Shown: in pieces, positions 10,774 to 15,688 of the stretch
Layout of the letters: each line of letters opens with the position of its first letter
Position numbering within the stretch: the stretch's first letter is position 1
From: a virus
DNA length: 64,000 nucleotides
Reading direction: 5' to 3' (one strand)
IMG/VR virus record: IMGVR_UViG_3300014208_000028
Coordinates: 1-64,000 of that record
Program-made: the position numbers and the translations under genes
Notes under the pieces: generated by a model
Told to the model about the DNA's origin: nothing
Seen by the model: only the letters and a program-made list of their open reading frames with translations
Database searches by the model: none

Positions 10774-11973
10774 TTATCCTTTTATAACCCCTAATGGTTC
10801 TAATCTAGTAACTATCTCTACTAAATCTTTCTGTTCTTCCATAACAATATCTATGTCTTTATAAGCTCCCGGCGCTTCTTCTAAATCTTCTTTAGAATTT
10901 AAAGAATGAAAAATACCTTTAGATTCTAAGTTATTTAATTCTGCTTGAAAATCTAAAGTTCTACACGCCTCTTTCCTACCCATCTTTCTACCCGCGCCAT
11001 GAGAACAACTTTTAAAACTTTCAGGATTTCCTTTTCCACGAACTATGTACGAAGCCGTACCTTGAGATCCTGGAATAATTCCTAGTTGCCCTTCTTTAGC
11101 AGAGGTAGCTCCTTTACGATGAACCATAACATTACTGCCGAAATGATTTTCCATAGTCGCGTAATTATGATGAATATCTATATCTTGAATAAAGTCTACA
11201 TCTACAAATTCCTTAAATATCTCTTTAGATTTATCCATCATATGCTTACGATTAGCTTTAGCGAATATAAGACAATTATTCATTTCTTCTATATATTCTT
11301 GCCCTTCATCAGAATCTAAGGGAAGAAAAGCTAAATCCCATTCTTTAGGAACCATAGAAAAATATCTAGCATTTAGTTCTCTAGCTTCACTATTATAATA
11401 ATCCGCTACTTTCTTTCCTAAATTACGGCTACCACTATGGATCATTATCCAAATATGCCCATCACTACCTTTTTGAATTTCTAAGAAATGATTTCCAGAT
11501 CCGAGAGTTCCTAATTGATGCATAGCAGATTCTGCCTCTAAAGATACTACTCCCTCATTCAGACCATTAGGCCAAATATCGGGCCAATAAGCTTGGGGTT
11601 TTTCATGATGATGGAATCCTACAGGAATAGCTTTTCTAATGTTGTTTAAAATTTTATTACGATTAAAATCTTCAAATTCATCTACTTTTATTGAAGTTTG
11701 AGTAGCAATCATACCGCATCCAATATCTACCCCTACCGCACTCACGACTATAATATTTTTAGTGGCTAAAATACCTCCGATAGGCATTCCAAAACCTTGG
11801 TGAGAATCTGGGGCCAAAGCTATATGATGAAAAGCGAAAGGAAGATGGGCTATATTCAAAGCCTGTTGAATAGCTCCCTCTTCCGGATTTCTACACCAAC
11901 TTTTAATAACTAATCCATCTTTACTTTTAATATAAAGTAAATCCGATTCTATTTTTTCATATTCCATTTTCAA
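10774..11973 (-). CDS. rtcB: RtcB RNA ligase
   Basis: PDSH, VGVDIGCGM, GTLGSGNHF, IHSGSR, HHNYA, VHRKGAT, SHGAGR. Confidence 0.96.
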   Translation of the reverse strand: MKMEYEKIESDLLYIKSKDGLVIKSWCRNPEEGAIQQALNIAHLPFAFHHIALAPDSHQGFGMPIGGILATKNIIVVSAVGVDIGCGMIATQTSIKVDEFEDFNRNKILNNIRKAIPVGFHHHEKPQAYWPDIWPNGLNEGVVSLEAESAMHQLGTLGSGNHFLEIQKGSDGHIWIMIHSGSRNLGKKVADYYNSEARELNARYFSMVPKEWDLAFLPLDSDEGQEYIEEMNNCLIFAKANRKHMMDKSKEIFKEFVDVDFIQDIDIHHNYATMENHFGSNVMVHRKGATSAKEGQLGIIPGSQGTASYIVRGKGNPESFKSCSHGAGRKMGRKEACRTLDFQAELNNLESKGIFHSLNSKEDLEEAPGAYKDIDIVMEEQKDLVEIVTRLEPLGVIKG

Positions 11974-13089
11974 TCCTTTCCATATTCAGGTTTTACATAT
12001 TTATAATGAACCATATCTCTAGCTCCGCGACTCCATACAGTTCTTCCACATCTATGTCTCATAGGTACTTCAAAAAAGCGGCCACAATGAAGACATTTAA
12101 AAGGTTTAGGTGCTCCACCTTTAGTATATTTATGTTCAGATTCTATATTTTGCTTTTCCATTAATTTATAAATATTAGACTTACCTTCCTTAACCTGCTC
12201 CTCAGTTAAAGGAATCATTTTGATAGGAGGATATCTATCATCTAAAACCTGCATATTAATAGATGTAATACAATTATTAATAGTATCTACCGCTTGAGCT
12301 AATACATTTGTAGAAGCTTTAGTAATGCTAATCCAATTCTCATATCTTCCATTAGTCCCACTACTACATCCGGCGCAAGGCTGAAGATTAGTATGGGCAT
12401 ATTCATAACAAGCACAATTATTACAGGATTTAATATCTTTACATTTAAATTTTTTACTGCATCCTACCACTTCTACATCTTTAATACTATATTCACATGG
12501 AACAGCAAAATTTCCATGACATTCTGGCCACCTATTCACGCAATCTATACATTTACCCATTTTCCATCTCTTTAAAATTCAGGTTTAAGAATAAGTTCAA
12601 TATCAAATCCAAGTATGTCAGCTACTTTAAAAAATTCTTTTATAGTAACATCGGAATCGTCCCCTCCCGCCAAAAAATATTCTATAAAATCACAAGTATC
12701 TTTATCATTACTATGTTCAATAGATTTTAAATATTCTTTATATTTTATAGCAACTTTCTCTAACAACTCTAAAACTTTAATCTCTGCTTTAACTTCCACC
12801 CTATTTTTAATATTTTCATTCAAATACTTCTCTACCAAAGTTTCATGCTTACTCATCTTTTCTCTCCTTAATCTTCTATTTTAGTAATAGTAATTAAATA
12901 CTCAGTACAACTTTTCTCTAATCCGCACATTCTCTCACACTCTTTTCGTTGATATAAATCACATCCTGAAACTCCATATTTTTGAGAGTATCCTGGAGAA
13001 CTATTATAAGAAGTCTCTATTTTAGGCTTTTTACTTCTACCACACCTCCAAAATCTCATAGATATATCCCTATCCATAATTTCCTCCAA
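11970..13089 (-). other. Hypothetical ORFs (11970-12560 Cys-rich; 12572-12856 possibly HTH-like; 12868-13089)
   Basis: Co-oriented with RBSs, downstream of the GTTATAAT promoter at 13117-13123. Confidence 0.65.
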
Positions 13090-13148
13090 AAAATAATACC
13101 TTCTTTTACAAAGGTATTATAACAAAAAATATTAAATTTTATATAGCT

Positions 13149-13346
13149 AAAAAAGGTAGCGTGGCTACCTTTAATTTTCGACACCATCTAACCCGATGGA
13201 TGAGGGGCTTTTAACAAGCAGTAAGTTTTTTTCACGGAGTCTTTCATCTCTCCCTGTGCCCAAATTTTTCGGCTGGCAACGGCCTAGTCAGTAAACAATT
13301 TGTAATTCTTATCGACCCTGACTGTCTTTAAGAATAGCTTCAGCTA
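13149..13346 (-). ncRNA. Candidate ~200-nt structured RNA
   Basis: Extended -10 TGGTATAAT at 13352-13360; terminator GGTAGC-CAC-GCTACC-T6; several stems, two possible pseudoknots, no convincing ORF. Confidence 0.6.
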
Positions 13347-13379
13347 TAATTATTATACCATAAAAATAAAAAAAATTGC

Positions 13380-15009
13380 TTAATTATAGTTATGGTCAAA
13401 AGGTTCTTTTTTAGAGTACATAGATTTGCCGGGAATGTCTACGACATGCATATCTAATCTAGGATTCTTCATCTGCGCGGCCAAATAAGCTAAGGTAATA
13501 GAAAATAGACAATCATCAGTATTATCTGGATCATGTATATATTTAAGTCTATCTGTTTTACTTTCTTCTATACACTCATTTAATATATCTTGACCAAATG
13601 GAGTTATAAACTTTTCGGGGTCTGATTTATAAGGAGCTATCATTTCTTGATTTTTAAATAAAGTAAATACATCACTCAATACTCTACTTCTATGTACTAC
13701 CATCATACCGCCGCCATGCTTATCAAAACTTATTTTATCCTTTTGGGCTGCGCTAAAATAAACTGGAATTACTCTTTCTTTTCCAATTCTTTTCTGTAAA
13801 TTAAAATTATAACTTACTCCAAAACCCCAGTCAGCACACACTACTCTACAATTCCATAAATGGCATAACTCAGTTATATCTTGTAAAAAGAAATCTTCAC
13901 TAGCTTCTAAACCAGCATATCTTTTCATATAAGATAATTTATAAGTACCATCTCTTTCTAATGTAAGTATGGTAACTACTGTATAACTTACATTTCCAGT
14001 ACCGTAGTCTATACCCATAACATGTATTTTACTATCTTTTAAACTAGGCGGATTAGGACTACGTTCGAACTCATAATCTCTACAACAAGCTATTAATTCA
14101 GCTTTAGTTATAGGCTTAACTCCTGAGTCCCAAGATTCTCCTAATACTTCATTCATAAAACCCGGCAAATCATAATCATGATATTTATCATGAATACTCT
14201 GCCAATTTTTATGAGTATAAGGAGTCATTAACTGATTAATATGATACCCAGCATATAGATATTTTGAACTTCCAGCAACCCATGTACCCAAGCGTATATC
14301 AAGGCCCTTTCCACATTTTTCACAAACATATCCTTCCACTCCTATATTTTTCATAGTTGTAGCATTCCATTTACCGCAACCGCATTTCGTCATCCACTCA
14401 CACATGGACGATTTTTTTGACCAATAATTTTCTATGGTATTTTCCATAGATAATGGAGTTCCGGCAAATATAATTATTTTATTAGTAGGAAAAGTAGCAG
14501 CACATTCTAGAATAGCAGGTACATGATCCATACCGACATTCTGAATCTCATCTATAGCTATTAATCTCGCCGCCAAACCTCGAACACGCGATTTAGCAGG
14601 ATCTACGAAAGAAGAACGTAATCGAATACTGGAATTATTTACCAGTCGTTTTTCCATTACGTTATTAGTAGTTTTACTATTAGTTAATTTTTTTAATATA
14701 GGACTTTGATCTATTATTGAATAGAGGCGTTCATTGCTAAAGACGCTCATCTGATCGTGCGTGGGGGCCACATATAAAGCTTTAAAATTAGGTAGTAGAG
14801 CACAATAAGTTAGTATCTTATTACCTTGAGTTGTGCTCTTACTACACTGTCTAGAACATTTAAGTAACATATATGTGGAATCATCATCATATATATCTTT
14901 AAAGGAACCTCCAACTATCAAATCCATACTCTCCTACGAAAGGATTCCCTTCTACATAAACAGCTCTTTCTACAAACTCTGAAGGAAGTATATTTAATAC
15001 GTCAGACAT
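13380..15009 (-). CDS. terL: Terminase large subunit (GpA-like), predicted to need a +1 frameshift at 14904-14899 (36 aa + 506 aa = 542 aa)
   Basis: Walker A SRQCSKST, Walker B IAIDEIQ, motif III AGTP, Zn-finger, FMNEVLGE, nuclease MGIDYG and PDNTDD. The upstream 36-codon ORF 15009-14899 supplies a plausible N-terminus. Confidence 0.9.
14899..14912 (-). promoter_or_regulatory. prfB-type +1 ribosomal frameshift cassette
   Basis: GGAGG-TTC-CTT-TAA: internal SD, 3-nt spacer, CUU-U slip site, in-frame stop. Confidence 0.7.
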
Positions 15010-15688
15010 TTTTACGTCTCCAAATATATCCCCCAGCAGTTTTTCTTTTTCCTTTACATGCAGAAGAAATATGTATATCTTTTCCTAATACTGTTTTCGC
15101 TATTCTCGCACTTTCATATTCTCTAATAAAGATACCTTCCTTAGTATATTGTAATACAGGTCTACTACAGGATTTCGCTCTTTTTTGAACTATTTCAGGT
15201 CTTTGTTTTATACCTTTATGGGCTTTACTATTCGCTATTTTTTGCTCTTCAGAATGTTTCCTTCCTCTAATAGCACTAGCAGATCTTTCTACAGCTTCCG
15301 CAGAATGTTTACAACCTCTTCCAGGCTCTTGTACTAAAGGAGAACTATTAAACAAACGCCCACCCTTAAAATATAAATCTAAATACCACTGTTCCCTATT
15401 ACTAAGATTTTCAATATCTACAAACTCAACAATATAAAAAGTTAATTTATCTTCCCCATATTTATCTGAAAATCTTTGAAGTTTAGGGGTAGCCTTACCA
15501 TACTTTAAACAATGACGATGGCCGTAATAACGACCTCTAAATTGTTGTGCTTGACCAATATAAAAACGATCATCTAAGGAATTCACAATAAAGTAAATTC
15601 CAGAACATTTACAATCTTCACGAGGAATGTCAAACTTCATACGTTCCTGAGTATTATTCTCTATCTGTGTATTTAATATCTCAGACAT
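15002..15688 (-). CDS. GIY-YIG homing endonuclease (NUMOD3/NUMOD1-like tail)
   Basis: SGIYFI...FYIGQA...R...H; REQWYLD; GRKHSEE; ACKGKRKTAGGYIW. Confidence 0.88.
   Translation of the reverse strand: MSEILNTQIENNTQERMKFDIPREDCKCSGIYFIVNSLDDRFYIGQAQQFRGRYYGHRHCLKYGKATPKLQRFSDKYGEDKLTFYIVEFVDIENLSNREQWYLDLYFKGGRLFNSSPLVQEPGRGCKHSAEAVERSASAIRGRKHSEEQKIANSKAHKGIKQRPEIVQKRAKSCSRPVLQYTKEGIFIREYESARIAKTVLGKDIHISSACKGKRKTAGGYIWRRKNV

Follow-up and report, generated by a model that had tools for sequence, protein, structure and literature searches.

A plausible orphan small RNA gene behind terL in a 200-kb phage genome

We analyzed a 64,000-nt stretch of DNA (the window), taken from the start of an IMG/VR virus record of 199,871 bp that is rated complete and has a GC content of 32.5%. 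The minus strand carries 272 of the 314 crude ORFs of this phage, and the genome is compact, with only 39 gaps of at least 120 nt in 200 kb. The RNA unit studied here is located in a gap of 290 nt (13090-13379) between terL and an ORF of 69 aa. In the order of minus-strand reading, the features of the gap and its surroundings are the following.

15002-15688: free-standing GIY-YIG homing endonuclease gene, upstream of terL
13380-14927, minus: terL, large terminase of the lambda gpA type (ORF list; Pfam GpA_ATPase, 4.2e-12, and also GpA_nuclease)
13352-13360, minus: extended -10 promoter TGGTATAAT (sequence and weight matrix)
13305-13335, minus: hairpin AUUCUUA-AA-GAC-[AGUCAGG]-GUC-GA-UAAGAAU, read from the sequence and appearing in one fold
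13286-13291, minus: CUGACU, exact complement of the loop AGUCAG (13323-13318), with a nested-helix pairing probability of 0.65
13284-13275, minus: GGC/GCC hairpin
13273-13258, minus: GCC/GGC hairpin
13256-13233, minus: CAC..GGAG/CUCC..GUG hairpin (base-pair probabilities of 0.85-0.97 for this and the two preceding hairpins, 13233-13284)
13188-13247, minus: ORF of 19 codons (MKDSVKKTYCLLKAPHPSG), the sole AUG ORF in the unit
13219-13207, minus: GCUU/AAGC hairpin
13199-13184, minus: CCAUC-GGGUUA-GAUGG hairpin (base-pair probabilities of 0.82-0.88, together with the GCUU hairpin)
13149-13172, minus: candidate intrinsic terminator AAAGGUAGC-CAC-GCUACCUUU followed by U6, with a 9-bp stem and a CAC loop
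13116-13124, minus: second promoter, of the same class as 13352-13360 (TGTTATAAT; 32.7 bits), 21 nt before the 69-aa ORF
12868-13077, minus: Cys-rich ORF of 69 aa, an orphan with GGAGG as ribosome-binding site and the first gene past the RNA unit
10774-11973: RtcB gene, 1.2 kb from the RNA unit
9650-9723: tRNA, downstream of RtcB and small ORFs

The terL stop codon (13382-13380) lies 22 nt upstream of the -10 box of the RNA promoter. As a terminator scan of the sequence between them found none, terL transcripts are expected to enter the unit. Past the unit, the gene order runs from orphan ORFs of 69, 94 and 196 aa to RtcB, more small ORFs and the tRNA. The 69-aa ORF matched nothing but itself among 1.8 billion representative proteins and has no Pfam or PHROG match, and the local proteins around the unit are all singleton 90% clusters. 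The 196-aa ORF (window 11970-12560) is translationally coupled to rtcB. A homologue search with its protein came back empty and its AlphaFold2 model is unusable (pLDDT 32.5); a language-model similarity of 0.78 to the treble-clef zinc-finger families DUF723/DUF4379 is a weak lead, all matches being below 0.8. Also on the minus strand, window 13093-13120 carries a perfect AT-rich hairpin of 10 bp (AAUACCUU...AAGGUAUU plus flanks) with U6 behind it. This hairpin lies after the second promoter and before the ribosome-binding site (GGAGG) of the 69-aa ORF, where it overlaps the likely transcription start. The sequence of the locus is reproduced in an independent Logan assembly, which is 100% identical over 8.6 kb and shows no micro-variation relative to the record. 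The RNA unit is thus not an assembly artefact.

The earlier note on this DNA had credited the unit with an extended -10 promoter of its own, and the site at 13360-13352 on the minus strand indeed belongs to a class that the genome uses repeatedly. The motif TG[GT]TATAA occurs 72 times on the gene strand versus 19 times on the opposite strand genome-wide, and 25 versus 2 times in intergenic DNA; its sites have a TGAAAA-like -35 element and AT-rich flanks in common. We trained a weight matrix on 24 other intergenic TG[GT]TATAA sites, leaving out the site of the RNA unit itself. The RNA-unit promoter is better than chance: with 22 bits it falls in the mid-range of the class, and that score is reached or exceeded at only 29 of about 400,000 genome positions, 28 of which are on the gene strand. 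Transcription of the RNA would accordingly be placed to start near 13345/13344. This promoter class drives RNA genes in the phage, as it precedes the tRNA genes at 9837, 21494, 47382 and 182716 and likewise several of the other ORF-free units. The RNA-unit promoter also has 16 nt, TATAATAATTATAGCT, in common with the promoter of another ORF-free unit at 152417-152424, and given this identity it may be a duplicated cassette.

At the other end of the unit, the 9-bp hairpin with its six U (13172-13149) is strong (-10.8 kcal/mol; pairing probability about 1.0), in agreement with the intrinsic terminator proposed previously. It was missed by a simple terminator scan, probably because A-U pairs of the stem take up part of the T run. 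The hairpin plausibly serves as intrinsic terminator for both the RNA unit and terL transcripts. Between promoter and terminator there is no coding capacity: no stop-to-stop frame exceeds 39 aa. The only ORF, as had been pointed out, has 19 codons and poor ribosome-binding-site spacing, its GGAG being just 2 nt from the AUG and inside the predicted GGAG/CUCC stem (p 0.94), and it is probably not translated. The unit has a GC content of 42% versus 32.5% for the genome, which corresponds to the 93rd percentile. The promoter class, the terminator and the lack of any frame above 39 codons together make a stand-alone RNA of about 197 nt plausible. In addition, the second promoter past the terminator serves the 69-aa ORF, so that the unit is read as stand-alone rather than as a leader.

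Next, we considered the fold of the unit, which the earlier note had described as pseudoknot-rich. All of the elements on which this description rested, namely the AUUCUUA/UAAGAAU stem (arms 13335-13329 and 13311-13305, with inner GAC/GUC), the AGUCAG loop and its CUGACU complement, and the GGC/GCC, CAC..GGAG/CUCC..GUG and CCAUC/GAUGG hairpins, were recovered on the minus strand where they had been reported. In the minimum free energy (MFE) fold of the 197-nt RNA, the AUUCUUA hairpin is replaced by an alternative nested helix: AGUCAG and CUGACU pair as an ordinary nested helix, which is mutually exclusive with the AUUCUUA stem. The pairing of CUGACU with AGUCAG could be either a pseudoknot or this alternative helix. 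For the core without terminator (13173-13345), the MFE is -38.7, compared with a mean of -37.6 for shuffles (z = -0.27), and the outcome for the plus strand is the same (z = -0.31). A longer piece reached z = -2.1, which is due to the terminator and to pairing between 5' and 3' AGCU. A perfect 6-mer complement to a hairpin loop was present in 17.5% of 1000 dinucleotide shuffles, and 4-mer loop complements of the UGCC/GGCA kind occurred 6.6 times per shuffle on average. The structure of the core is thus not better than chance, and the label of pseudoknot-rich could not be upheld. The unit also contains several short inverted repeats, and there is a flanking UAUAGCU/AGCUAUA repeat.

Family searches were then used to look for relatives of the unit. 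A check against Rfam, together with synteny and covariation behind terL, had been suggested in the earlier note. At gathering score, Rfam matched only tRNAs in the whole genome and left the RNA unit unmatched; at E<=10 with permissive filters, the region gave chance matches only and no family for the unit. Searching 50,697 phage records by blastn returned AT-rich promoter fragments only, and exact and gapped word scans of IMG/VR and JGI metagenomes gave 0 matches. We built a covariance model, R1, from the unit as a single sequence. On its own genome it found only itself, and hence no paralogue. On 82 related loci it found 0 matches, and with the filters off nothing fell below E = 0.58. A search for targets in the phage genome gave 12-mers as the longest complements, as chance predicts, and the neighbouring 5' regions were no better as targets of the RNA than shuffles.

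Synteny places the unit at the edge of a lineage-specific block. The nearest TerL proteins among 5.8 billion sequences share only about 50% identity with that of the phage, and the collections hold no relative above 50%. In three contigs with a TerL of about 50% identity, terL is directly followed not by an RNA unit but by a conserved convergent membrane-protein gene (about 90 aa) and then by an NT5C-like gene. Among IMG/VR TerL relatives of 34-37% identity, fewer than 120 nt follow terL in 73 of 80. No comparable gap or RNA after terL was found in TerL relatives from IMG/VR, metagenome contigs and GTDB genomes. The phage does carry homologues of the membrane-protein and NT5C-like genes, at 5916-4160. 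Compared with contigs L002 and L003, it has about 7.5 kb extra (window 5917-13379) between terL and the NT5C-like/336-aa block, which holds the RNA unit, orphan small ORFs, RtcB and a tRNA-Arg with a tRNA-like neighbour. The RNA unit is located at the terL-side border of this 7.5-kb insertion. A decayed copy of the relatives' membrane-protein gene was rejected as an identity for the unit; the homologue of that gene sits at 5707-5916.

A separate observation concerns terL of the 205-kb relative L002 (4679-6158), where the called TerL ORF is just 385 aa. The N-terminal part is apparently encoded upstream in another frame (4679-4930), where the gene caller chose an antisense ORF. From its sequence, the L002 TerL may also be interrupted, at a site that differs from the frameshift in the window.

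The phage has about ten ORF-free promoter-to-terminator units, and the unit behind terL is one of them. Two others lie in tandem on the minus strand at 152255-152575, outside the window, and neither is in Rfam. The fold of unit A (152462-152575) is much more stable than that of shuffles (z = -3.8), and unit B (152255-152424) is the one whose promoter carries TATAATAATTATAGCT. Also outside the window and on the minus strand are an ORF-free promoter-to-terminator unit of about 270 nt (154055-154328) and one of 135 nt (183030-183166), which is closed by GCCGAGU/ACUCGG. Both are without an Rfam match and have the same promoter class as the RNA unit; the latter enters the next gene without a U-tract and is leader-like. 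The RNA unit was rejected as a paralogue of the other ORF-free units, as alignment was limited to promoter and terminator motifs.

The species 1 and species 2 RNAs of T4 are phage-encoded small non-coding RNAs, and the unit behind terL is a plausible orphan phage small RNA. We give about an even chance to the reading in which the minus strand between about 13345 and 13149 encodes a small non-coding RNA, about 197 nt long and specific to this lineage, that is ended by the strong terminator. This keeps the core of the earlier proposal, a non-coding RNA with its own promoter and terminator, which fits the sequence, the promoter grammar and the lack of a usable ORF, but not its emphasis on pseudoknots, which has no statistical support. 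In such a scheme, the host-sigma70-like extended -10 promoter would fire the unit, and the same terminator would close terL transcripts, making the RNA the terL 3' UTR as well. The candidate RNA would be made, be stable and act in trans, either by pairing through its single-stranded linkers and loops or by protein titration, and its action would fall in the phase in which this promoter class is read by host RNA polymerase. The RNA would fold as a string of short local hairpins, with a 5' domain in two competing arrangements and a pseudoknot that is only hypothetical. Judged by analogy with UTR-derived phage RNAs (PMC10914365), it could function as a trans-acting regulator or decoy.

A more ambitious version seems unlikely to us. 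It would make the unit a functional member of an unusually large set, about ten, of orphan small RNAs of this 200-kb groundwater phage, fired from the tRNA promoter class and heading the RtcB accessory block, as a regulator or decoy against host RNA-targeting defence and possibly with a real 5' H-type pseudoknot. A real RNA here would be a further orphan small RNA of a phage that apparently invests heavily in small RNAs, in the form of tRNAs, tRNA-like RNAs and the ORF-free promoter-terminator units. In that case the set of about ten units, rather than this single one, would be a promising place to search for riboregulation by phages or for RNA-based counter-defence. Taken by itself, the unit lacks relatives, a significant fold and a predicted target, and it is not enough to argue for a new class of RNA or for packaging assisted by RNA in a phage of the terminase type.

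The main rival to the small RNA gene is junction debris: a 290-nt gap of non-functional DNA left when the 7.5-kb block inserted after terL, which supplies the terL terminator and a spare promoter cassette with a functionless body between them. We take this as a possibility of some weight, though not as a probable one. The unit is located precisely at the point where synteny with L002/L003 breaks off, terL there being adjacent to the convergent membrane-protein gene, and it has no relatives. Its promoter shares 16 nt with another cassette, and neither folding nor loop complementarity nor antiterminator pairing rises above chance. On the other hand, the genome is tightly packed, and a strong promoter leading into a strong terminator would be costly if useless. 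The GC content of the unit is also up by 10 points, and among the roughly ten similar ORF-free units at least one (152462-152562) is strongly structured (z = -3.8).

We also asked whether the unit could be a cis-acting leader or attenuator, in which a signal sensed by the 5' domain would decide whether transcription from the first promoter ends at the terminator or continues into the 69-, 94- and 196-aa ORFs and rtcB. This arrangement would imply that the 5' GCUAUUCUU influences read-through. The order of promoter, 175-nt leader and terminator ahead of genes, with alternative pairings of a terminator arm, resembles that of attenuator leaders and riboswitches. As long as the 3' arm of the terminator has not been transcribed, the 5' arm has a predicted pairing with the 5' end of the RNA (GCUAUUCUUAA with UUAAAGGUAGC, p ~0.9), in competition with the AUUCUUA stem, so that on paper three pairings compete as in a riboswitch. 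In phiKZ, moreover, premature termination is known to give short RNAs from 5' UTRs (PMC10914365). However, the alternative pairing is matched by 20-24% of shuffles and is thus at chance level, and a separate promoter with a higher score (32.7 bits) intervenes between the terminator and the 69-aa ORF. These two findings speak against a riboswitch or attenuator, and no riboswitch family or aptamer class matched even at E<=10. We consider cis-acting control quite unlikely.

Two further explanations are very improbable. The unit might be the mRNA for the 19-aa peptide, as GGGAGAG precedes the AUG and tiny phage proteins exist; but the distance from the Shine-Dalgarno sequence to the AUG is about 2 nt versus roughly 6-8 nt in genes of this genome, the Shine-Dalgarno sequence is buried in the GGAG/CUCC stem, and the peptide is not hydrophobic. 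Alternatively, the DNA itself might be a pac/cos site or an origin beside the terminase gene. It does adjoin terL and contain several short inverted repeats, but the array of direct repeats that TerS binding would lead one to expect is missing, and the feature is not conserved after terL in relatives. Furthermore, the ends of two independent assemblies lie about 13 kb from here, near window position 187, which suggests that the physical end is at that place.

The suggestion that the RNA is a phi29-pRNA-like packaging RNA, oligomerising by loop-loop contacts on the portal or terminase, is hardly credible, as it failed in every test run (Rfam, ATPase type, loops and relatives). The likeness consists of size (about 174 nt before the terminator), an own promoter, packaging genes nearby and one 6-nt loop with a complement, and proximity to terL and this complement are the only points in its favour. 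By contrast, there is no RF00044 match in Rfam at gathering score or E<=10. TerL is a gpA-type ATPase-nuclease (GpA_ATPase/GpA_nuclease), and the gp16-type ATPase PF05894 is absent from the 200-kb genome. In place of two mutually complementary loops, AGUCAG is in a loop and CUGACU in a linker or the alternative nested helix, a complementarity expected by chance. Relatives with the same TerL family have no counterpart after terL.

Compared with known systems, the small RNA candidate is closest in organization to phage-encoded small non-coding RNAs that run from a promoter to a terminator or that derive from UTRs. Pseudomonas phages, phiKZ among them, have documented non-coding RNAs that stem from 5' or 3' UTRs, and the phiKZ candidates were identified by Grad-seq and ONT-cappable-seq (PMC10914365). 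Like these, the present unit is a short ORF-free unit of a large lytic-type phage with a recognisable promoter and an intrinsic terminator, and it overlaps the 3' end of the upstream mRNA. A relation to them in sequence or structure is not detectable. A candidate non-coding RNA 1.2 kb from rtcB also recalls the Y RNA/YrlA of rsr-rtcB operons, but this identity was rejected, since the phage has no Ro60/TROVE (PF05731) and the unit has neither a tRNA-like module (ARAGORN) nor an Rfam match. ARAGORN found nothing that would make it a tRNA-like RNA or tmRNA. A retron msr-msd was rejected as well, as reverse transcriptase PF00078 is absent from the genome despite the flanking UAUAGCU/AGCUAUA repeat.

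A final observation concerns the start of the contig. In window 1-192, a GC-rich 15-mer (GGAGGTYCGCGCCAC-like) is repeated about ten times in tandem, with 60% GC versus 32.5% genome-wide. A Logan contig of this phage, assembled independently and 183,850 bp long, begins at about window position 187, just past the 15-mer array. At its start the contig either reaches a physical end of the genome or runs into a repeat at which assemblies break.
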